NCBI GenBank assembly: GCA_947626025.1
Contig: CANQQQ010000002.1
Location: forward strand, 2,239-66,238
Reading direction: 5' to 3'
From: an uncultured Clostridia bacterium
GTDB taxonomy: Bacteria; Bacillota; Clostridia; TANB77; CAG-508
Length of the DNA stretch: 64,000 nt
Each line of letters starts with the position of its first letter. Position 1 is the stretch's first letter. Made by a program: the position numbers and the translations under genes. Below, piece by piece: positions 1 through 19,459 of the stretch. Under the pieces are notes generated by a model. The model worked only from the letters and a program-made list of their open reading frames with translations, was not told the origin of the DNA and did not search any database.

Positions 1-2306
1 ATATATTTTTAGCTTCTAGAATATTTTTTAGGCTATTTTCTGTATCTATATAATCTTTATTTTTCATTTTAGTAATCATAAAAATGTAATCTTTATATAA
101 GTCAGGAAATAAATTTTTTATCTCATTTTCGTACTTATTTTTTCTCTCTTTAGATATGTCATTTTTCCAGACATAAAAAATTAGTTCTTTTTTGGTTAAA
201 GCATCATATATGCTTTGAATTGAATTATTATCTAATAATTTTTTTATCATTAATTCACAAATATACTCTATTATATAATTTGATAAATTAATATATGTTA
301 AATCTTTAACCGATATATATTTATATTTTATACATAAATCAATTATTTTTTCGAAAGCATCTCCTTTTCTTCTTTCAAACATTATCTCTTCTCTAAGATC
401 CATATTACTTTTTGAATCTTCTTCTAAAAATCTTTTAACTATTTTAGTATTCAAAATCTCTACGATGGTTTTTCTACCAAATTTGTCTAATATATCAACA
501 TTATTATTTATAAATCTTAGAAAACTTGCGACATCTTTATCAGAGTTTAGTTGCCTTAGTAATTTTTTTATTCTATTTATATTATAATTCTTTATTATAA
601 ATTCTTTTATTAGTGTATCATCCATATAAAAATATATTTCTTCTTTAAATCTATCTTTATAATTCAAAATATATGTATTAATTATATCATCGAGTTTTTC
701 TAGTTTATTTATCATTTTACATTCATGAAGTATTATAGAAAGTAGTCTATTATTTATTATATATAAATCTAATACATTATCTATTTTAGAAATATCCATT
801 ATTTTTACATAGATTGTTAAGAATCTAACCTTAAATCTATTATCATTCATAATTTTTTCTTCATTTATTGTTAAAAAATATTTTAAATTACTTAATTCAA
901 TTAATTCATCTGGAACATAATTGTCTAATATATTATCTATTATTGATAATATATTGTTTATATAAATAGTATAAAATTCATCGATTTTACTATTAAAGTT
1001 AATATTAATAAGTATATTACTACATTCTTCTAATACACTTTTATAATTAATCCTAATGATATTTGAAATATAACTATCGTTATAACTCAAATATTGATAT
1101 AATTTTGTATATTGAAAAATCATTTTCTGACATATTTTTACTATATATTCTTTATCCGCAGTTTCAAAATTAATATTAAATAATAAGTTTAATAAATTGT
1201 CTTGTTTTTCTATATTATTATACACAAATTCTAATATTAACTTCCTATATACTTCAGATTCACATACTATATAAGAAATAGTATTAAACCAAAATGGATC
1301 AATTTCTTTATTTTCATTTATAACTATTTTGTATAGATTACTGTTGGAAAAATTATTTTCAATTATCTCATTTGCAGCCAAAAATTCCAATAACTCCTTA
1401 TTTTCAAATTGTAAAATTTCTCCATCATTTAATAATAATTGATTATTCAAAAAGCTTTCAATTATATCTTTATTCATAATATAGTTTTTTATGTCTAAAT
1501 AGTTTATTCTACTTAAAAATGTAGTAAACTCTTCAATGGTTAAGTTTATTTTCCCAGACATCATCATAACTAAAGCCATTGATTGTAATATTTTTTTATG
1601 AATATTCTTTTCTATTTTTGTATTTGCCCTATTATTCAATGTGTCTAAATGATTGTTGACTATTAAGTTTAATATGTTGTATTTATTAACTTTTTCCAAA
1701 TTATTAATCTGTTCTATATTATCAATTATATAAATTAAAAATCTCGGAATTTTTAAAAGACTTTTAATATCTTCTATATCTGAATTATCTATATTTTTAT
1801 TTTTTAATATTTCCACTACCTTACACTCTTCAATAGGCATTATTTCATATACATTGTTTGTAGTATTCAACATATTATTTTTTTGTAAAAAATCTTTTCT
1901 ACTTGAAACAATAACTTTTTTATTATTAATTTTAAAAATATAATTTATTACTTCTTCTATTATATTTACATTAATTTCGTCTAAACCATCAAAAATAACT
2001 ATTTCATTTTTATCTAAGATTTTCTTTTTTATTTCACTTAATTTACTATATCTTTTTAATTCAAGTAATAATGTTTTTCTTTTTGCTTTGTTAAACCTAC
2101 TATTAATTAAATTTAAGAGATATGTTTTACCTATCCCATTACTTCCTGTTATTATAGATATACCTTTTTTATTTTCTAACATAGAAATAAATTCATCATG
2201 ATTTGCTATTATGTTTTCCTCACTATATTCATATTTATTATTTTCTTCATTATTTAATTGATAATTAATGCCATCTTCAAATAATTTAATAATTTTTTGC
2301 TCAACC
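1..2306 (-). CDS. NACHT-family STAND NTPase, partial. The start codon is at 2306 and the C-terminus runs off the window at position 1 (>768 aa). It is absent from the ORF track because there is no stop codon in the window.
   Basis: My own minus-strand translation gives MEKVEQKII...ISIITGSNGIGKTYLLNL (Walker A, GxxGxGKT), then IVIFDGLDE (Walker B; the DGLDE form is the NACHT hallmark), then KVIVSSRKDF (the NACHT [ST]xR motif). A long Asn/Ile/Leu-rich helical C-terminal region follows for more than 500 aa. There is a strong RBS, aaaaggagaattaaATG. The reading frame stays open to position 1. Confidence 0.7.
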
Positions 2307-2356
2307 TTTTCCATTTAATTCTCCTTTTATATTTACAATTATGTCTTTTTATTTTA

Positions 2357-3352
2357 CTAAGTAATATTATTCTTTATATTCTCTAATTTGTTCCTATCCG
2401 AAAATAGCATGTTAATCATTTTTTTTACTACCATTTCTAGTTCACAGCAAATATGTAATATAACCCAGTTTTTTCTACTATATTCTGAATAATCAAATGA
2501 GAAATTACCATCCATTATTTCACTAGCAAACTCTTCAATCAATTTTTCAAATGATATAAAATCTCCATGTGCTATTTTATTTCTCATTTTTCGTAATTTT
2601 TTAGGTATAATATTTTTTAAATCTTCAGGATATTCATCATCTAAAAAAGTAATTAACTTTTTATCTAATTCATATTCTTTTTCCTTTTCCAAAAACAACT
2701 GGCATAATGAATATAATTTTAAAAAGTGATATTCATTATAATCATTATCTTTGAAAAAGGAATTTATTAGATAATCTAACTGTAAATAATCATTTTTACT
2801 AACGAGAAAATTATCAATTTTTTTCCCCCATAATTTTAGTGAACTAATATATTTTTTTATATTACAAGTGTAATGTAAAAATCCATATGGATTATTAAAA
2901 TGATTATTAGAAGAATATATACAATGTGGTATATTTCCGCTTTCACTTATATTACATATAAAATTTATTATTTTTTCTGCGTAATCATTTTCGCATAATC
3001 TACCATCAAAACAATTTGTTTCCCAGCCTCCTAATGGCATGTCATTATAATTATAATCTAAATATATACAAATCATATTGTCAACGATTTTATGTATCAT
3101 TTTGCAATTACTCATATTTTCCATTTCTGTTGAAAAACATACACTTGAATAGAATTTTTTCACATCGAATGGTGATTTTAAATTATATCTTTTTGAATTC
3201 TGATCAATTGTTTTTTTTGCTAACACCACCTCTTTGTATAACGCATCATTCCAATTATTATTTCTTTCGTTAGGAAGATTGGCTATATATAATCCTAATT
3301 TTTTTGATATACAAATAGGTTTTATTTTTCCATAAATATTTAATACAACCAT
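2357..3352 (-). CDS. Hypothetical 331-aa protein with a C-terminal HEPN-type Rx4HG motif (KLRKMRNKIAHGD). It is a putative RNase effector.
   Basis: The ORF track protein has the motif R-N-K-I-A-H-G in its C-terminal third, matching the HEPN consensus R[NHQ]xxxH seen in Abi-type HEPN proteins. It sits 50 bp upstream of, and on the same strand as, the NACHT NTPase gene. Confidence 0.5.
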   Translation of the reverse strand: MVVLNIYGKIKPICISKKLGLYIANLPNERNNNWNDALYKEVVLAKKTIDQNSKRYNLKSPFDVKKFYSSVCFSTEMENMSNCKMIHKIVDNMICIYLDYNYNDMPLGGWETNCFDGRLCENDYAEKIINFICNISESGNIPHCIYSSNNHFNNPYGFLHYTCNIKKYISSLKLWGKKIDNFLVSKNDYLQLDYLINSFFKDNDYNEYHFLKLYSLCQLFLEKEKEYELDKKLITFLDDEYPEDLKNIIPKKLRKMRNKIAHGDFISFEKLIEEFASEIMDGNFSFDYSEYSRKNWVILHICCELEMVVKKMINMLFSDRNKLENIKNNIT

Positions 3353-3474
3353 TATAACTCCTCGTATATTTTATAAATCATCCAAAAATATTTCTTTAAT
3401 TTGTTATCAAAAAAGCAAAATAATTCTGTAATATATATTACTATTATCTTGCTTTTCTTTTGTTAATTATTTTT

Positions 3475-3675
3475 TTATTGATTGTCTTCTTCTACTTCAC
3501 TTAATTCAATAAAATCTTCTTCTGGACTATTTTTATAAGAACGACTTAAATGATAATGTCCACCATCTACACTGCAAGTCTCACATTTACATGTTACAAA
3601 TTCATGAATACCTTTTGATTCAATAATTTGTCTGCAGTGTTTGCATTGAATTTTATTTGATATTATCTTTTCCAT
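3475..3675 (-). CDS. Small zinc-ribbon protein (66 aa; CxxC ... CxCxxC) with an acidic C-terminal tail.
   Basis: The cysteine pattern is C11/C14 and C29/C31/C34. It lies between the methyltransferase and the HEPN gene on the same strand. Confidence 0.4.
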   Translation of the reverse strand: MEKIISNKIQCKHCRQIIESKGIHEFVTCKCETCSVDGGHYHLSRSYKNSPEEDFIELSEVEEDNQ

Positions 3676-3701
3676 AATTTCATTTCTCCATTTTCATTTT
3701 A

Positions 3702-5966
3702 TTAATACTTATATTCTTCGTTATCTTCTGCAACCATTAAAATATTATCTTCTTCTATTTCTGTACTATATTTTGATTCAGAGATTATCCTATTCCATGC
3801 TATCTTATGTTCAAAATTAATTTCCGTATCTTGTGATAAATTCCTTACATAATTGTTTATAAAAGTATCTGTACTATTAATTAATCTTAAATAATATTTT
3901 AATGTATCAAATACACCATTAACTATAATCTGACATCCATGTTCAGTTCTAATATGTTCAATTAAATTATCTATTTTTATTCTTTCCTCTTCATCGCAAT
4001 GTACTGTACTTAATATATAATATCTTTGAATATTAGTATCTTTAATCTTTTTATATGCATCCATCACCATTATTGAGTCTGGTTTTATATCAAATTTAAC
4101 CTCGACAATTTCATATAGCTCTTTGCTTTTTATATCTCTTACTACTATATCTCCTGTTGCTCCACTACTTCTATCGCAAGATGTATGTGAATTTAATGGT
4201 TCTAGTTCTTTTCCTTCAAATCGTTTTAACTCATTAATTATACACTCATATATACTATATATTGCAATAACTGGTAGTATTGATGCCCCTCTAGATGAAT
4301 ATTTATAATAAAAATGTTTTTTAAGATATTCTAATATATCAATGATATTTAATGTTCCTTCTCTTTTTATTGGATTGATTATTGCTACTGCTTTCTGTTG
4401 TTTGTTTAATAAACATAATTTTATTATAGCTTTAAGATATGTATTTGGATTTGAATTATTTTCTTCAATATCATTTAGGATTTTTAAGAATGCGTCTTTT
4501 ACTTGTTTATTATTTATTTTACCAGGAAAGTCTAATGTAAATGGATATGGTTGTTCTATACTTCTTGTTAACCAACCAGATTCCTTCATTGCACCATAAA
4601 ACTGTTTGGATTTCAAAAATGGAGTTACATATTTGGTATCGAAACTTCTTCCACTATATCCATTTTCTAAACTAATTTTATGATATCTTACATCTTGTTC
4701 TGGATGTAAGCACTTATATGTTATACTAGAAAACAATGCCGTAAAAACTCCTTTTGAAGTTTCTTCTGCATCAGTAATATTTTTTACCCATTTAATTTGC
4801 TCATTATTTAAATCTAATTCACTTATATTTTTTATGTTTTCTGATTCCAAATATATTTTTTCTAAAAACTGAGTTGGATTATTCATTATAACATCTCCTT
4901 CATCAAATAACTGTTTTTTTATTTGTCTAGCTATTTCTTGTATCATATTTACACATACACTATTTCCTATTCTTTCATAAAGTTTAGCTTTAGATCCGAT
5001 TTTTTTAAAATTTTCTGGAAATCCCATAAACCTATAACATTCATTTAATGTCAATTTTCTAACATTAGTTCCATCATATATCCAATATCTTCCACATGTT
5101 TCTTGAGATGCTATTGTAGGATGAATTCCTTCTATTGAATATATTCTATTAGGCTGTTTATGTACTCTTGATAAATTTTCTGTACCTGGCCTCACTCCAA
5201 CTGTTCGCATTTTTTTATTCCTATATCCAGCAAAAATTAGTCCTGACTTTTCTTGCCTTTTAGCTTGTTTTATTATAGTATATTCATTTGGATTAAGATA
5301 TTCAAATTCTCCTGACTTATCTAAAAAGTCTCTCATTGATTCTATTGTTATTTTTTCAATTTTATTAAAATCAAAAAATTTCCCTATTTTGTTTCCGACA
5401 ATTATAATTCTTTCTCTATTTTGAGGTACATTAAAATCCTTTGCATTAAGTACCTTATATTGTACAGTATATCCTAAACTTTGTAATGCTGATATCATTA
5501 CTCTTAAAGTATTTCCTTTATCATGTTTCTCTAAATTTTGAACATTTTCTAATACAAAAACTTTTGGATTTTTATTTTCTAGTATTCTACATATATCAAA
5601 AAATAAAGTTCCTCTTGTATCATCATAAAATCCTTTTTGTTTACCACTTATTGAAAATGCTTGACATGGAAATCCTGCACATAAAACATCAAACTCTGGT
5701 ATAGTATTAACATCTACTTTTGTTATATCACAATATGGATCATCTCCAAAATTTTCTTTATACATATTGCATGCATGTTCATCTATTTCTGAACTAAATA
5801 CGCATTTATAGCCTTCTCGTTCAAAAGCAATTCTAAAACCTCCTATACCAGCAAATAAATCTATAAATCTAATATTTTTATTTTCCATATTATTATTCCT
5901 TTTACTTATAAATACTCTAGTATAATTTATATCATAAAATGACATTTTTCTCAACTTATGCTTCAA
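3702..5966 (-). CDS. DNA (cytosine-5)-methyltransferase with a ~380-aa C-terminal extension carrying a PD-(D/E)xK-like motif. The actual start is probably the ATG at 5888 (MENKNIRF...), which has an AGGAA RBS.
   Basis: The N-terminal half carries the C5-MTase motifs: motif I FAGIGGF, motif IV GFPCQAFS (the catalytic PC) and the ENV motif VLENV. The C-terminal extension contains GDIVVRDIKSKELYEIVEVK, which fits a D...ExK nuclease-like core. Confidence 0.8.
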   Translation of the reverse strand: MKHKLRKMSFYDINYTRVFISKRNNNMENKNIRFIDLFAGIGGFRIAFEREGYKCVFSSEIDEHACNMYKENFGDDPYCDITKVDVNTIPEFDVLCAGFPCQAFSISGKQKGFYDDTRGTLFFDICRILENKNPKVFVLENVQNLEKHDKGNTLRVMISALQSLGYTVQYKVLNAKDFNVPQNRERIIIVGNKIGKFFDFNKIEKITIESMRDFLDKSGEFEYLNPNEYTIIKQAKRQEKSGLIFAGYRNKKMRTVGVRPGTENLSRVHKQPNRIYSIEGIHPTIASQETCGRYWIYDGTNVRKLTLNECYRFMGFPENFKKIGSKAKLYERIGNSVCVNMIQEIARQIKKQLFDEGDVIMNNPTQFLEKIYLESENIKNISELDLNNEQIKWVKNITDAEETSKGVFTALFSSITYKCLHPEQDVRYHKISLENGYSGRSFDTKYVTPFLKSKQFYGAMKESGWLTRSIEQPYPFTLDFPGKINNKQVKDAFLKILNDIEENNSNPNTYLKAIIKLCLLNKQQKAVAIINPIKREGTLNIIDILEYLKKHFYYKYSSRGASILPVIAIYSIYECIINELKRFEGKELEPLNSHTSCDRSSGATGDIVVRDIKSKELYEIVEVKFDIKPDSIMVMDAYKKIKDTNIQRYYILSTVHCDEEERIKIDNLIEHIRTEHGCQIIVNGVFDTLKYYLRLINSTDTFINNYVRNLSQDTEINFEHKIAWNRIISESKYSTEIEEDNILMVAEDNEEYKY

Positions 5967-6760: not shown

Positions 6761-7588
6761 TTAACCATTCATCATTGATTTTAAAGTTTTTCCATCTTTA
6801 TTTTTCCATTCTGTTAACCCATTAGCATTCCTACCTAATACCATAGCAGCTGCCGTTGAAGGAGATAAAAATAATGTGTCTTTTGCAAAAATATTGTTTT
6901 TATTTATTATTTTCTCACTTCTTAGGTCATTCCATCTATTTCTCAAGGATTGTGAACTCGCATCTCTAAATTTACTGTTGCTCTGTGAGCCTTTAAATAC
7001 AATAAAGCCATCACTCGTTAGTGCCCCTACTGCTTTTAGTCCTATAGAATTTATGTAATACATTTCATCTAATTGTACTTCTTTTTTTGTTACTATTTTA
7101 CTAAATATTTTGTACCCTAGTGCAGTAGTTATCATTTCGATAATCTCTATTACTTCCTGCATTTCGGAGATTTCTAGTTCTGTTAATGGTGATTCTGTCG
7201 TATTTTTTCTATTTTCAATTCTAAACCTTTTTGCTCCTTTAGCTTTTTTAAATAAATAATTTTCTAAGTATCTTATATTCCCCTTGTTGAAACTATTGTC
7301 ATTTCTTATAAAAATTAAACTCTCATTCCAAAAGTCTTTATCAGATAAATGCTGTATTAATCTTTTATATACATTTTCTGACTCTCCAATATATGCATAT
7401 AGCTCCCCATCTTTCTCTCCAAATAATATATATACTCCTGCATACGCTATGTCTTCTCTATCCTTGCAGTTTTTTACTTTTGTTTTTGGAATCTTATATG
7501 CCAATATGTTAGAATTGCTAAGTTCACATTTTATCCTTCCATCGATTTCACCATCTACTAAAAATAATTTTATATTTTTTTGATACAT
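6761..7588 (-). CDS. GIY-YIG nuclease family protein with a DUF4357-type C-terminal domain.
   Basis: The N-terminus reads GVYILFGEKDGELYAYIGESENVYKRLIQH, a GIY...YIG core. The C-terminus reads FKGSQSNSKFRD...FLSPSTAAAMVLGRNANGLTEWKNKDGKTL, which is typical of DUF4357. Confidence 0.65.
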   Translation of the reverse strand: MYQKNIKLFLVDGEIDGRIKCELSNSNILAYKIPKTKVKNCKDREDIAYAGVYILFGEKDGELYAYIGESENVYKRLIQHLSDKDFWNESLIFIRNDNSFNKGNIRYLENYLFKKAKGAKRFRIENRKNTTESPLTELEISEMQEVIEIIEMITTALGYKIFSKIVTKKEVQLDEMYYINSIGLKAVGALTSDGFIVFKGSQSNSKFRDASSQSLRNRWNDLRSEKIINKNNIFAKDTLFLSPSTAAAMVLGRNANGLTEWKNKDGKTLKSMMNG

Positions 7589-14163: not shown

Positions 14164-14200
14164 AAAAAATAACCGCCATTTAATGGCGGTTACTTTTTTA
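14164..14200. terminator. Bidirectional intrinsic terminator between two convergent genes.
   Basis: The stem is aaccgccatt / aatggcggtt, flanked by an A-run on one side and a T-run on the other. Confidence 0.7.
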
Positions 14201-17200
14201 ATATTCTAGTACGAATTTCTTAATTCCTGCTACTCCTGTTACTAATATTGCTATTACAATTGTTGTTAAGATAATATATTTTATTCCTGTATTTATTCCT
14301 GTTTTTATTACTAGTAAAACTGGTGCATCATCTATATCGTCTTCTCCTGTTACTTTGTTGTCTGGAGTTGAATCAATATCTGGTGTATTGCTAAAGTTTG
14401 AATCTTTGCTTATTTCTGCAACATTTACTTTTCTGCCTAAATTTTCTTCTCCATTTATCCATGTTAATATTATTTGAACTTCTGCACTTTCTCCAGGTAG
14501 CAATAATGTATCTTCTAATTGCGCTGTAGCAACTGTTCCATCTGCTCTTATATACCATTCTGGATTATCTTCTTGTCTAAATTCTAGTCCTGCTGGTATA
14601 TAATCAGTTATTTCTTTTGCATAACCTGATATTTCACCTTCGTTTGTAATCTTTATTGTATATGCAAATTTTACAGTTACTTTTTTTACATCCTTAGACT
14701 TTATTTCTACTTTTAAATCTGGTTCTGGATTTTCATATCCTGTATGACCTGATTCTGTTATTGTTGTCTCTCCATTTTCTGTTACTATTGCTCTTGTTAC
14801 CCATTTTAATAGTGATAAGTCGAAATATTGTACTTTTACATCTTCATAGTCTATATCATCTTCATGATTTTTGTCATCATATTCTTCATCTCTATTTGGA
14901 ACTGAGTCTATATCTGTATTACTATCTTCTGATATTTGTGCTACATTTACTAGTATTCTGCTTTCTTCTCCTACTTGTGTTACTTTATAGTTTACTTTAA
15001 ATGCTATTTGAACATCTCTATAAGCTGGATTTTTATCGCTTAGTTCATCGTTCTTATCAAATGCTTTTATTAAATTATCTCTTCCAGTTTCTTTTTCTTG
15101 CTCTTCTGATAAGTAATCTGTTACTAAGTATTTTGCTTTATTTACGTCTGTTGTTTCGTTATGATTTTCGTCTAACATTACCCATCTATATTCTTTATTC
15201 AATTCACTATCTACTATAAATTCTAATCCATATGGTACATCATCTGTTATTTCATTTGCATATCCATCTATTTCTCCTTCGTTGTATATTCTTATTGTAT
15301 AAATTACTGTATCGCCTGTACATACTGTTACTGGATCTTTCTTATGTGTATATTTAATTTTTCCATTATCATCTATGCTTAATTCTGGATATCTATCATT
15401 TATTTTTGTACGCATATCTGCTGAATGTACTTCTGTGATGAATTTTCTTAATGCTAAATCGAAAGTACCTATTACTTTAACTTTATCATAATCATCATCA
15501 TCTTCTTGTCCTGGTACATAAGGATTATCTTCTAATTCCTCTTTATAATGTGGTAACTCATCCTTTGATGGAATATCTAAGTTCTCATCTGGTTTTGAAT
15601 CCAAATCTTCAACTGAAGAATCTCCTTTGGTGTCTGTAAATTCTGTTATTTCTGCTATATTTGTTTGAATCTCATCTATCTTCGCTTTTTCTGATACTTT
15701 ACATCTAATTGCTACATCGATGTAATTTAATGTATCTCCTCCATCATATGCTGATAATAATTTTCCATTTTCTCTTGTTCTATATACTCCATATGTATCA
15801 GTACTTGACTTTGCTGTTATAGATGTAGATATTTCTCTTGTATTTTCATCATATTCCCAATCAAATCTTTGATTTAATTCATCATCTTCAATAAATTCTA
15901 AATATTCTGGTAAATAATCTGTTATTTTGCTTACATACGCATCCATATTTCCTTCGTTGTATACTCTTATTATGTACGTTACTAAATCTCCTCTTGTTAC
16001 AGATACTGCTTTCTTTGGATGTTTATATGTTGCTGTTCCATATCCCTGTTCTGCAATTCCTTGCTTTAATGAAGTCGTATCTACTACTGGTTCTCTTGCA
16101 TACTTTCCGTTTTCGTCTAATATTCTTTTATCTCCTACTTGCACTATGAATTTTCTTAACGCTAAATCATATTTTGGAAATACTATTATTAATTTTTCAA
16201 AGTCATCATCATCTTGATTTCCTGGTATGTAGTCCTCTACTCCAATTTTGTCATCTCGATACTCTTGCCATCCTTGTTCTGTTTCTGGTAAGTTTTGAGT
16301 TACATTATTTGGTTTTGAATCTCTATCTATACCCTCTTCTAATATTTGTGTTCCATTTTTGTCTTTCATTCCTGTTATTTCTGCTATATTTGTAATTTTA
16401 TAGTCTTCTATAATTCCAGTTTCTACTTCTGGTTCTAATACTTTACATGTTATTTGTATATCTATATAACTTAATTTATCATTTATCTCATCATAAGCTG
16501 GTATTAAAATACCCCCTCCTATAACTTCGCCAATTAAGTCTGTTAAATTATCACTTGCACCTGTTATTTTTGTTAATTTTGTTGATCTTGCTTTACTTTC
16601 AAATCTATCTACTCCTTGTTGACCATATTCTCTATACCATTCTTCACTTTCAACATAGTCTAGATATTTTGATAAGTAATCTGTTACCTCTGTTATATAT
16701 GCATTTACATTTCCTTCATTATATATTCTTAAAGTATATGTTACTTTATCACCAACACTTACTTTTACTGGTTCCTTATCATGATTATATTCTGCTGTCG
16801 TTTTTGTTCCGTTTCGTAAATTTGTAGTATCTGGGTCTGGTATTCTTTCTGATAATTCGTCTGCTGTATATACTGTTACTCCTTTTGAATCCACAACTTT
16901 GCTTATGAATTTTCTTAGAGCTAAATCAATGCTTTCTTCTATTATTCTTTCATTTTCTATTGTTATAGTTATTGTATTTGTTGCTCTATCTATATTTACT
17001 TCTCCTACTGAAGTATTTATCTTTTCTAAAGTTACATCATCTAATTCATAATTTAAATTATCATCTGACTCTTTTTTGTTTACAGTTACTTTAATAGTTC
17101 CTTCAACCTTATTATATCCTGTTGGTGCTGATTTTTCTGTTATTTCATATATATCAGCAATATCCACATTATCTTCATTTATTTGTACATTATCTCTTAT

Positions 17201-19459
17201 TATAACAGTTCCGTCTGTTCTAGTTGTATAGTCTGTTCCATCTACTGTAAATACTGCTCCTGGTAATCCAATTCCATTTGAATTTACTTTCTTTAATAAT
17301 AGTCTATACCCACCTATTAATTCTTCGTTTTGAACAGTTACCGTTATTGTGTTTGTTGCTCTATCTATTTCTACTGTTCCTGCTGAAGTATTTGTTTTGT
17401 TTAATGTTACATCATCTAATTCATATTTTAAGTGATCATCTGATTCTTTTTTACTTACTATTGCTGTAATTGTTCCATCAATTTTCTTATATCCTGTTGG
17501 TGCCGTTTTTTCTGTTATTTCATATATGTCACTCATATTTACATTATTTTTGGTAATTTTTACATTTTCTTTTACTGTTACTTTTCCATCTGTTCCCGTT
17601 GTAAAGTCTGTTCCATCTACTGTAAATACCGCTCCTGGTAATCCTGTTCCACTTGAATTTACTTTCTTTAATACTAGTTTATATTCACCTGTCATTTCTT
17701 CATTTTCTACAGTTATGGTTATTGTATTTGTTTCTCTATCTATTTCTACTCTTCCAAATGAAGTATCACTATTTTGTAAGTATACATTATCCACTTCGTA
17801 ACTTAAATGGTCTGCTGATTCCTTTTTACTTACTACTAATTCAGCCATTCCTGAAAGCTTTTTATACCCTTCTGGGGCAGTTTTTTCTGTTATTTGATAT
17901 GTATCATTTGAACTTACATTATCTTTTGTTATCTGTACATAATCTTGTACTATTACTTTTCCATCTGATCCTGTTGTATAATCTCTTCCGCCTACTGTAA
18001 ATACAGCACCTGCTAATCCCTCTCCTTTAGTATTTTGTTTTTTTAATACTAGTTTATATCCGCCTGTTATTTGTTCGTCTTGCACAGTTATAGTTATTGT
18101 GTTTGTTGTTTTATCTATTTTTACTTTACCTGATGAACTACTTACTCCATCTAATTCTGCCCTATCTATTTCATATTTTAGATTGTCACTAGATTCTTTT
18201 TTTGTTACTGTTAATTGTATTGTTTTATCATATTTTATATATCCTGCTGGAGCTCCTGTTTCTACTATTGTGTATGAATCTTGTGAAGTACTATTTCCTT
18301 CAGTTATTTTTACACCATCTGGTGTAACATTTACTGTTCCATCCTCTCCTGTTGTATATGTCTTGCCATTTACTGCAAATTCTGCTCCTGATAATGTCTT
18401 TCCGCTTTTATCTACTTTCTTTACAATTACGTTATATTCTCCCTCTAGCTGTTTTTCTTCTGTTACTGTTACAATTGGTTGAGCCTCTTGATTTGCATAT
18501 ACTGTAATGACTCTATTAGGATTTCCGTGTGCAATATCATAGTTAGTTTTACTTTGTGCATTATCAACAAAATATTTGTATACCATGTTTACATAGTATT
18601 CTCTTATCCTTCCTGCTGCTTGATCTGTGTCTCCAAGTTTTTCTGGAAATAGTGTTGAATATGTCGTTAAAACACCATTATCTTTTGATATATATATTGC
18701 TGGAATTCCAGTTGATCCTCCAATAGAATTTTCAAATAATGAATGATTTGTTAAATTCCAAATAGCTAATTGTTGAGCAATTTCTATGTCAAAATCGGTT
18801 ATTTCTGCATTAGTACCTTCTGCTTCTAGTTCTTCTATTGATTCTTGTATTGTTCCAGTCATTTGTATAGTTCCATAATCAGTACAAGGAATCTTACTTA
18901 GGAAATCTTGTTTATTTTGTTCACCAGGTATGTACATATTATCTAATATCCATACTAATTTATTTATTGTTTTTGTATCATCATTTTCATCAAATGCTAG
19001 CACGTTTTTTCCAGCATATTTTGTTCTTAATGCGTTTAATTCTGTTAATATTCCACTGTTATTTGTATATTTTAAGTTAAAAGGCTCTGCATATGTACTT
19101 CTTGAAATTCCCTTTATTTCACTTGTTGAACTACCAGCATGTGCATCAGATGTAAATAAATTGCCACTACCATCACCGAAATCTCCATATCCTTGTGCTA
19201 AGCAATAAAATACATCATCAGTAGTTATCGGTGTCTGCTGGTTATATGGTTGTATATTCCATATGTATTTTAAGCTGTTTGAAGCTTGCGATGAACTTTG
19301 AAAAGCATATACGTAAGTGCCTGTTCTATCTGTTCTTTGCGAATTTATACCAAATTTTGTATAACTCGTTGCCGCTTGTGTACAACCTGTGGAAATTACT
19401 AGTGCTATTATTAACACAACTCCAATTTTTAGTAATAGATTTTTCATAATAAATTTCAT
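14198..19459 (-). CDS. Giant cell-surface adhesin of 1753 aa. It has a signal peptide, a putative N-terminal thioester domain, about five Cna-B/SpaA-type isopeptide domains, three large DUF11-type repeats, and a C-terminal IKTG motif followed by a TM helix and basic tail.
   Basis: The signal peptide is MKFIMKNLLLKIGVVLIIALVIS. The N-terminal domain has Cys in VFYCLAQGYG and Gln in EIAQQLAIWN, which together resemble the TED Cys ... [TS]QxA[VI]W pair. There are repeated GAEFAV/GAVFTV...DG and ETGAPAGY/TEKTAPEGY Cna-B signatures. Three modules of about 230 aa begin DLALRKFI and contain GDKVTYTLRIYNEGN, a DUF11-like motif. Confidence 0.7.
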   Translation of the reverse strand: MKFIMKNLLLKIGVVLIIALVISTGCTQAATSYTKFGINSQRTDRTGTYVYAFQSSSQASNSLKYIWNIQPYNQQTPITTDDVFYCLAQGYGDFGDGSGNLFTSDAHAGSSTSEIKGISRSTYAEPFNLKYTNNSGILTELNALRTKYAGKNVLAFDENDDTKTINKLVWILDNMYIPGEQNKQDFLSKIPCTDYGTIQMTGTIQESIEELEAEGTNAEITDFDIEIAQQLAIWNLTNHSLFENSIGGSTGIPAIYISKDNGVLTTYSTLFPEKLGDTDQAAGRIREYYVNMVYKYFVDNAQSKTNYDIAHGNPNRVITVYANQEAQPIVTVTEEKQLEGEYNVIVKKVDKSGKTLSGAEFAVNGKTYTTGEDGTVNVTPDGVKITEGNSTSQDSYTIVETGAPAGYIKYDKTIQLTVTKKESSDNLKYEIDRAELDGVSSSSGKVKIDKTTNTITITVQDEQITGGYKLVLKKQNTKGEGLAGAVFTVGGRDYTTGSDGKVIVQDYVQITKDNVSSNDTYQITEKTAPEGYKKLSGMAELVVSKKESADHLSYEVDNVYLQNSDTSFGRVEIDRETNTITITVENEEMTGEYKLVLKKVNSSGTGLPGAVFTVDGTDFTTGTDGKVTVKENVKITKNNVNMSDIYEITEKTAPTGYKKIDGTITAIVSKKESDDHLKYELDDVTLNKTNTSAGTVEIDRATNTITVTVQNEELIGGYRLLLKKVNSNGIGLPGAVFTVDGTDYTTRTDGTVIIRDNVQINEDNVDIADIYEITEKSAPTGYNKVEGTIKVTVNKKESDDNLNYELDDVTLEKINTSVGEVNIDRATNTITITIENERIIEESIDLALRKFISKVVDSKGVTVYTADELSERIPDPDTTNLRNGTKTTAEYNHDKEPVKVSVGDKVTYTLRIYNEGNVNAYITEVTDYLSKYLDYVESEEWYREYGQQGVDRFESKARSTKLTKITGASDNLTDLIGEVIGGGILIPAYDEINDKLSYIDIQITCKVLEPEVETGIIEDYKITNIAEITGMKDKNGTQILEEGIDRDSKPNNVTQNLPETEQGWQEYRDDKIGVEDYIPGNQDDDDFEKLIIVFPKYDLALRKFIVQVGDKRILDENGKYAREPVVDTTSLKQGIAEQGYGTATYKHPKKAVSVTRGDLVTYIIRVYNEGNMDAYVSKITDYLPEYLEFIEDDELNQRFDWEYDENTREISTSITAKSSTDTYGVYRTRENGKLLSAYDGGDTLNYIDVAIRCKVSEKAKIDEIQTNIAEITEFTDTKGDSSVEDLDSKPDENLDIPSKDELPHYKEELEDNPYVPGQEDDDDYDKVKVIGTFDLALRKFITEVHSADMRTKINDRYPELSIDDNGKIKYTHKKDPVTVCTGDTVIYTIRIYNEGEIDGYANEITDDVPYGLEFIVDSELNKEYRWVMLDENHNETTDVNKAKYLVTDYLSEEQEKETGRDNLIKAFDKNDELSDKNPAYRDVQIAFKVNYKVTQVGEESRILVNVAQISEDSNTDIDSVPNRDEEYDDKNHEDDIDYEDVKVQYFDLSLLKWVTRAIVTENGETTITESGHTGYENPEPDLKVEIKSKDVKKVTVKFAYTIKITNEGEISGYAKEITDYIPAGLEFRQEDNPEWYIRADGTVATAQLEDTLLLPGESAEVQIILTWINGEENLGRKVNVAEISKDSNFSNTPDIDSTPDNKVTGEDDIDDAPVLLVIKTGINTGIKYIILTTIVIAILVTGVAGIKKFVLEY

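Follow-up and report, generated by a model that had tools for sequence, protein, structure and literature searches.

The 64,000-nucleotide stretch analyzed here, positions 2,239-66,238 of contig CANQQQ010000002.1, is called the window, and coordinates below are those of the window unless another contig is named. At its left edge lie two genes on the minus strand that an original prediction had described as a candidate HEPN + NACHT two-gene defense module. Gene A (2357-3352, minus strand) is a listed open reading frame (ORF) for a 331-residue, two-domain protein, a predicted stand-alone ribonuclease (RNase) of HEPN type. Gene B, of which the first 771 of 1296 codons lie within the window (1-2314, minus strand), would encode a NACHT-like STAND nucleoside triphosphatase (NTPase) module at approximately residues 45-340 followed by Ile/Asn-rich helical repeats. 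Our analysis leads to a different picture, in which A and B are adjacent but probably evolutionarily independent single-gene immune candidates housed in one defense island. Their adjacency is a trait of one narrow clade and most likely reflects a single insertion in a defense hotspot, not a functional dependency. A dedicated pair is unsupported because gene B has its own predicted nuclease domain, because close relatives alone carry both genes together, and because a near relative of the locus has swapped gene B for other genes.

The predicted nuclease domain lies beyond the edge of the window. Gene B begins with an ATG at 2314 and its reverse-strand translation runs without a stop to base 1; the ORF list omits it, since its frame leaves the window edge and such ORFs are not listed. 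The original prediction had correctly described a protein of more than 768 residues (771 open codons) with its NTPase at the N-terminus, running off the window and absent from the ORF track. It had also proposed extending the contig to reach the C-terminus of the NTPase. This extension was made on L001, a 31-kb metagenome contig found by exact-sequence look-up of the 331-residue protein and identical to the window across all 13,352 overlapping nucleotides. The remainder of gene B past base 1 is readable there (L001:13352-14929) and adds 525 residues, including the nuclease-like domain, for a full length of 1296. The earlier statement that no effector is fused thus arose because the window cuts the gene short.

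The order of domains in gene B is an NTPase from about residue 45, then approximately 800 residues of predicted HEAT/ARM-like helical repeats, and the nuclease-like domain last. The region after the NTPase is rich in Asn and Ile, as had been noted (Ile 15.6%, Asn 13.2% in the window part). A model of residues 760-1296 (predicted local distance difference test, pLDDT, 84.1) closes with an α-βββ-α-β-α-β unit, in which the α-βββ-α-β core of PD-(D/E)xK nucleases can be traced with an Asp on strand 2 and (D/E)xK on strand 3. E1175, E1192, K1198, K1199, R1200, D1202, E1217, T1218, and K1219 make up the C-terminal set that is invariant in 32 homologs, and the invariant nuclease triad (D1202, E1217, and K1219) is kept in the window's own clade too. 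From this model and these residues, gene B appears to end in its own PD-(D/E)xK nuclease-like domain, the predicted effector. No sequence match was found between this C-terminus and Mrr, Cap4, DUF4263, or any nuclease model of Pfam or PADLOC.

At the other end of the protein, the motifs of the NTPase module are present as originally quoted. The Walker A or P-loop sequence GSNGIGKT (residues 57-64; 2123-2146, minus strand) has G57, N59, G60, G62, and K63 invariant in 32 homologs, and the Walker B sequence IVIFDGLDE (residues 105-113; 1976-2002, minus strand) is of the NACHT type hhhhDGhDE, with D109, G110, D112, and E113 invariant in the same set. The sequence SSR (residues 137-139; 1898-1906, minus strand) occupies the place of the NACHT "TSR" sensor-1 arginine; in it, S137 and R139 never vary, and S138 is conserved in at least 90%. 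NACHT domains, as Koonin and Aravind are said to have described them in 2000, have a Walker A of the form GxxGxGK[ST], a Walker B of the form hhhhDGhDE with an extra acidic pair, and a downstream [ST][ST]R. The complete set is found in gene B, with spacings of 46 and 30 residues from GSNGIGKT to IVIFDGLDE to SSR. P190 and R191 are also invariant. A further conserved segment, KNIHKKILQSMALVMMMSG (residues 236-254; 1553-1609, minus strand), holds invariant I238, H239, L243, and Q244. In the STAND fold the NTPase core is followed by a helical domain and then by a winged helix, and H239 may correspond to the histidine of that winged helix. Conservation across gene B peaks at residues 241-320. The database search behind these statements returned at least 36 full-length homologs of about 1290 residues, down to 40% identity, and 32 of the 36, likewise reaching down to 40% identity, entered the alignment. 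The size of the family is underestimated because low-complexity words had saturated the index used for the search. As judged from the alignment, residues that stay invariant to 40% identity (n=32) put these motifs beyond chance occurrence.

Profile searches of both proteins, as had been suggested, gave for gene B sub-threshold matches within the NACHT clade; no match to Pfam, PADLOC, NCBIfam, or PHROGs rose above threshold. The window protein scored 18.5 bits against Pfam NACHT (PF05729), below the gathering cut-off of 26.7, with Walker A alone aligning. Across the family, 29/32 members match Pfam NACHT weakly (E ≤0.1, best 5e-06), and AAA_22 is matched by all 32 with scores as good as those of NACHT. 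The NCBIfam model EruA (NF058535) is matched by 22/32 members (best E 6.9e-08) and HyoA (NF058534) by 6/32, and PADLOC mad8 weakly by 21/32 (best E 1.3e-06). The NACHT identity claimed originally holds for the motif set but not at the profile level, where every match is sub-threshold and AAA_22 does equally well. We regard the NTPase module as likely, but not proven, to be NACHT-like. The gene B family profile found chance or P-loop matches alone among Protein Data Bank (PDB) sequences, and a search with the NTPase-module profile aimed at distant Pfam-labeled STAND proteins, limited by the same index saturation, reached nothing but fragments of gene B family members.

Gene A likewise belongs to a family with an architecture of its own. 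A first search gave 310 matches; when 1.84 billion representatives were searched exhaustively, the family comprised 208 clusters at 50% identity. Full-length members are nearly all 330-390 residues long and cover the whole profile, and this near uniformity implies a constant two-domain layout that is hardly ever fused to other domains. In the AlphaFold2 model (pLDDT 87.3), the N-terminal α/β domain (residues 1-160; 2873-3352, minus strand) is without a detectable structural or sequence relative, and the C-terminal domain (residues 163-331; 2360-2866, minus strand) is all-helical and HEPN-like. The latter includes KLRKMRNKIAHGD (residues 252-264; 2561-2599, minus strand), which holds the Rx4H motif R257-N-K-I-A-H262-G in agreement with the HEPN pattern Rx4-6H. 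This string had been quoted correctly but placed wrongly at the end of the protein: the motif is internal and 67 of the 331 residues follow. In 41 close members R257, N258, A261, H262, and G263 are invariant; in 34 divergent representatives R, H, and G remain so, and N becomes S or C in some. Such constancy puts this motif, too, beyond chance occurrence.

The assignment of a HEPN RNase motif to gene A is borne out by the invariant R, H, and G; at the profile level the matches are weak. Nothing in Pfam, PADLOC, NCBIfam, or PHROGs matched the window protein above threshold, and no HEPN model matched it at E ≤1. Weak matches to HEPN Pfam families occur among the 41 members, namely to pEK499_p136 (10 members), Swt1 (8), RiboL-PSP (6, best 4e-05), MAE_28990 (2), and AbiU2 (1), and one member is labeled "Apea-like HEPN domain-containing protein" in UniRef. 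Foldseek found no significant match to the gene A model in the PDB, and profiles of the family and of its divergent C-terminal domains retrieved only chance or P-loop matches from PDB sequences. HEPN is nevertheless the best reading of the C-terminal domain; the fold is not proven, and we hold the assignment with good confidence. In the N-terminal domain, the loop DMPLGGWETNCFDGRLCE (residues 104-121; 2990-3043, minus strand) is near-invariant across the family, following the pattern DMPLGGWxTNCFDGRxCE, and has the lowest pLDDT of the model (54-61). This loop could serve in interaction or ligand binding.

If A and B formed a dedicated module, gene A should be seen with gene B among its more distant relatives as well. 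The original prediction had itself accepted that genes never found together elsewhere would refute it. That comparison has now been run, and the pairing fails. A survey with one genome per species gave 36 loci with a gene A homolog, spanning Clostridia, Bacilli (including the complete chromosome of Lactococcus cremoris, L031), Negativicutes, and one actinobacterium. Gene B adjoins gene A in two of these loci, L007 and L008, where A is about 80% and B 71% identical to the window. A homolog of the NTPase is missing from 33 of the 36, including L009 and L010, in which gene A is 75-79% identical. With L001 and L052 the paired loci come to four, and every NTPase in them is at least 71% identical to that of the window. 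Conserved co-occurrence across divergent members of both families was not found. All-against-all clustering of gene A neighbors revealed no partner family upstream or downstream, the maximum recurrence being 5 of 89 neighbor proteins. The pooled neighbors include UvrD, OLD, ResIII, Tn7 (TnsD/TnsE), MobA, and integrases. Directly downstream of gene A elsewhere are found HsdR, OLD with UvrD, an LA2681-HEPN protein, a LysM amidase, CHAT, MobA, and two unrelated STAND-like proteins. These downstream genes differ even between gene A homologs that are 93% (L020/L022) or 74-75% (L032/L033/L034) identical.

The two STAND-like proteins deserve a separate description. In L022 gene A is followed by a 1087-residue NTPase (L022:11079-14339) with weak NACHT and AAA_22 matches, absent from L020, and in L034 by a 1597-residue NTPase (L034:11049-15839) with weak nSTAND and AAA_16 matches, absent from L032 and L033. 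Three other candidates for a gene A partner were considered and rejected. The DUF7695 protein encoded directly upstream of gene A (3475-3675, minus strand; 66 residues, Cys-rich; Pfam PF24749, 1.3e-23) was tried as partner or antitoxin, and jackhmmer finds it only at L001, L007, and L010, plus L052, that is, in the closest relatives alone. Small upstream ORFs, considered as antitoxins, are mutually unrelated, a number of them being probably spurious. In the Bacilli branch, large genes upstream of gene A are shared by L032 and L034 alone; L033 lacks them, with a gene A 74% identical to that of L032.

The comparison of L010 with L001 bears directly on the relation between the two genes. At the DNA level the two contigs are 81-83% identical through gene A up to the start of gene B, and identity resumes just past the gene B stop. 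In place of gene B (L001:11039-14929), L010 carries an OLD protein (AAA_15+TOPRIM), a UvrD helicase, and a 398-residue gene (L010:11036-16340). Because the breakpoints fall at the boundaries of gene B, gene B was exchanged as a unit with gene A staying in place. The slot marks a hotspot of defense-gene exchange.

Seen from the side of gene B, the result is the same. In seven divergent gene B contexts (L043-L051, 40-58% identity), tblastn and the family hidden Markov model found no gene A homolog within 5-6 kb. All seven are defense islands, with type I and type III restriction-modification, ThsB-TIR, NERD, RVT, SIR2, OLD, Fic, and GmrSD among their genes. In L052, where gene B is 82% identical to that of the window, a block of DUF7695, A, B, and a 97-residue gene is found in a differing outer context, with conjugation genes of the TrbC/type IV secretion system (T4SS) adjacent. 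A 110-residue ORF upstream of gene B homologs of 48% identity was rejected as a partner; it reflects local synteny only and is missing from L001. Beside gene B homologs in three otherwise different contexts we also observed a MazG-like gene (about 100 residues) with an SLFN-g3-type helicase gene of 594-623 residues (L044:8935-11142, L045:4984-7191, L052:1521-3638), and the helicase alone at L049:3076-4947. These two genes may constitute a separate recurrent defense pair. In catalogued phages and plasmids neither gene A nor gene B was found, except for a weak partial match of gene B to an Arcobacter plasmid ORF. With pairing in 2/36 gene A loci and 0/7 divergent gene B contexts, and with the swap in L010, the proposal of a dedicated HEPN + NACHT two-gene module is not supported.

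Several points nonetheless count against treating A and B as independent immune genes. Every library match of both proteins lies below curated thresholds, both families are known from sequence and predicted models alone, and at the fold level gene B could belong to NACHT or to another STAND clade. The DUF7695-A-B-97-residue block is kept in three contexts (NTPase identity 71-85%), and in the window's clade A and B are on the same strand, 12-42 nucleotides apart, without a terminator. Finally, the unrelated STAND-like NTPases of L022 and L034 directly follow gene A.

The arrangement of the genes makes a functional two-gene system restricted to this clade the first alternative to weigh. In such a system the STAND protein would sense phage and the HEPN protein would provide a second RNase output or act as a trans-activated partner. 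Gene A had been placed immediately upstream of gene B on the same strand, which is so, with a gap of 50 bp, which is in fact 42 nucleotides (2315-2356, minus strand). Within the spacer lies the ribosome-binding site AAAGGAG, and no terminator separates the two genes. No terminator-like site occurs in window positions 2100-3800; a bidirectional terminator follows gene B. Promoter scans were uninformative in this AT-rich DNA, with counts equal to those of shuffled controls. To judge from these sequence features, A and B are probably co-transcribed in this organism, which is also compatible with simple packing within the island. The preservation of the DUF7695-A-B-97-residue block in L007/L008 and L052 across different outer contexts also speaks for a system. 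Against it, gene B keeps its own invariant nuclease triad in this clade as elsewhere, gene A appears in none of the seven contexts of gene B relatives at or below 58% identity, gene A relatives of 75-79% identity (L009, L010) are without gene B, and L010 swaps gene B alone for OLD and UvrD. Co-occurrence confined to one narrow clade amounts to one evolutionary event. We consider such a system unlikely. The broader proposition that A and B cooperate in some way in the window's clade, through a coupling specific to it, keeps a small residual chance. A variant in which one sensor drives a dual output there, A cutting RNA and B cutting DNA, and in which the gene A family is more broadly a portable HEPN module that attaches to adjacent STAND sensors, with the DMPLGGWxTNCFDGRxCE loop as a docking or trigger surface, has a similarly low probability.

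A second alternative is that gene A, gene B, or both have a role outside immunity. Gene A could then act as an RNase, either toxin-like or housekeeping, or as an addiction factor of mobile elements, and gene B as an NTPase-nuclease with which mobile elements carry out DNA transactions. No defense model is matched above threshold, Tn7 TnsD/TnsE, MobA, and integrases are found near gene A, and L052 sits beside TrbC/T4SS conjugation genes, all of which would fit. Defense systems, however, travel on such elements too, and recognized defense genes dominate all seven divergent gene B contexts. Gene B also shares its slot with an OLD+UvrD Gabija-like cassette, and the absence of both proteins from catalogued phages and plasmids, with the one exception given above, is a further argument against a mobile-element role. 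This alternative strikes us as somewhat less probable than a clade-restricted system. Very improbable is a third, in which gene A acts as a shared trans-acting HEPN effector or amplifier for whatever STAND NTPase is encoded alongside as a swappable sensor: three unrelated STAND-like NTPases do directly follow gene A in the same orientation, at gaps of 12-42 nucleotides (gene B), 55 nucleotides (L022), and 4 nucleotides (L034), but they account for 4/36 genome loci in three lineages, the nearest relatives are without a STAND gene (L020 vs L022, 93%; L032/L033 vs L034, 74-75%), other downstream genes are varied (HsdR, OLD+UvrD, LA2681-HEPN, LysM amidase, CHAT, MobA), each STAND protein has space for an effector domain of its own, and STAND genes are common in defense islands (PMC13581612).

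With A and B taken as independent immune candidates, separate mechanisms can be proposed for them. The helical repeats of gene B would bind a phage-derived trigger, NTP-dependent oligomerization of the NTPase module would gather the nuclease domains, and the clustered C-terminal nuclease would cut DNA, such that infection is stopped or the cell is killed. Gene A would behave like the single-gene HEPN abortive-infection proteins: its N-terminal domain would hold the HEPN RNase off until infection or stress is sensed, at which point HEPN domains would build their usual composite Rx4H active site for RNA cleavage.

The surroundings of the two genes are in keeping with an island. On L001 the order is pyrC-F-K-D, desulfoferrodoxin, a GIY-YIG/DUF4357 gene, a small ORF, a C5 DNA methyltransferase, DUF7695, gene A, gene B, a convergent 97-residue gene, an AAA_14/DUF4143 ATPase, a SWIM protein, lepB, and holB. 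The GC content is 16-21% in the A/B region and 27-36% in the adjacent pyr genes. A and B belong to a low-GC defense island that has been inserted with the pyr operon on one side and lepB/holB on the other. The C5 methyltransferase (3702-5966, minus strand; 754 residues) matches Pfam DNA_methylase (1.1e-93, residues 32-351) and PADLOC MTase_II (2.4e-108) and is a further member of the island. Its C-terminal extension of about 400 residues has no Pfam match and carries a D…ExK-like string, GDIVVRDIKSKELYEIVEVKFD, at residue 605; the extension may be a fused restriction nuclease. A 275-residue protein (6761-7588, minus strand) combines a GIY-YIG nuclease domain with a C-terminal DUF4357/RAMA-like domain and is likely another member. 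Downstream of gene B, an AAA_14+DUF4143 ATPase of 413 residues followed by a 524-residue SWIM zinc-finger protein (L001:15766-18667) may be a further two-gene unit of the island. Elsewhere in the window a 1753-residue ORF was observed at 14198-19459 on the minus strand.

If the predictions hold, gene B represents a STAND/NLR-like immune architecture in reverse order, with the NTPase first and the nuclease last, an arrangement that bears on the way oligomerization switches the effector on. On the same condition, the family of gene A, compact and lacking a partner gene, would comprise about 200 HEPN clusters, chiefly from Firmicutes, whose regulatory domain is a fold orphan. Defense-finder tools would miss both families because neither has a threshold-level model in Pfam, NCBIfam, PADLOC, or PHROGs. 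The case also illustrates that adjacency at the edge of a window is weak evidence, since 525 missing residues and a neighborhood survey overturned the proposed architecture.

Among known systems, several share features with one or the other protein. The mad8 component of the methylation-associated defense system MADS (PADLOC PDLC04140) resembles gene B through a weak match over the NTPase module, and in the window a DNA methyltransferase lies two genes upstream of gene B. Only the P-loop module aligns, however (gene B residues 48-268 on a 314-position model), and no other mad gene was found among the four island proteins scanned against PADLOC. Membership of gene B in MADS was rejected on the grounds that the P-loop alone aligns and that the other gene B contexts lack the methyltransferase. 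Of all library models, EruA covers the NTPase module of gene B best, with residues 49-319 aligned to model positions 23-305 and a length of 1296 vs 1318. Judging from the position of this alignment, the N-terminal placement of the NACHT domain is perhaps common to both. The score is 21.5 bits for gene B (about 20-30 for the family) against a cut-off of 1000 bits, and nothing past the NTPase module aligns. Gene B is thus no member of the EruA family and at most distantly related to it. A literature search for EruA or HyoA found no antiphage paper.

Gene A is best compared with the HEPN abortive-infection (Abi) and toxin families, which include AbiD/F, AbiJ, AbiU2, AbiV, the C-terminal domain of AbiA, RiboL-PSP, pEK499_p136, Swt1, and Apea. 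It shares with them R-[NSC]-x3-H-G in an all-helical C-terminal domain, is encoded by a single gene in defense and mobile regions of Firmicutes, and has members that weakly match several of these families. It differs in matching no HEPN family above threshold and no PADLOC Abi model, and in having a 160-residue N-terminal α/β domain without a relative, with no MNT-type antitoxin or conserved partner. For the nuclease-like domain of gene B, the comparison class is formed by the Mrr/Cap4-type effectors named for Avs proteins (PMC13581612), and control of a C-terminal nuclease by an N-terminal ATPase has been proposed for a GHKL-Shedu protein (PMC12137116). The predicted nuclease domain of gene B differs in having no sequence match to Mrr, Cap4, or DUF4263.

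The closest comparison for gene B as a whole is with Avs and bNACHT proteins. In STAND immune proteins the effector is typically N-terminal, the NTPase central, and the sensor C-terminal (PMC13581612). Gene B departs from this tripartite order, with its NTPase starting at about residue 45 and its nuclease-like domain at the extreme C-terminus, and it matches no Avs, bNACHT, or Pfam NACHT model above threshold. What it has in common with these proteins is a P-loop NTPase of STAND type with NACHT-style motifs, a large helical-repeat region of a kind fit for sensing proteins, a nuclease-like effector, and a location in defense islands. By analogy, gene B and the Avs and bNACHT proteins are likely to follow a common logic of sensing, oligomerization, and effector activation.

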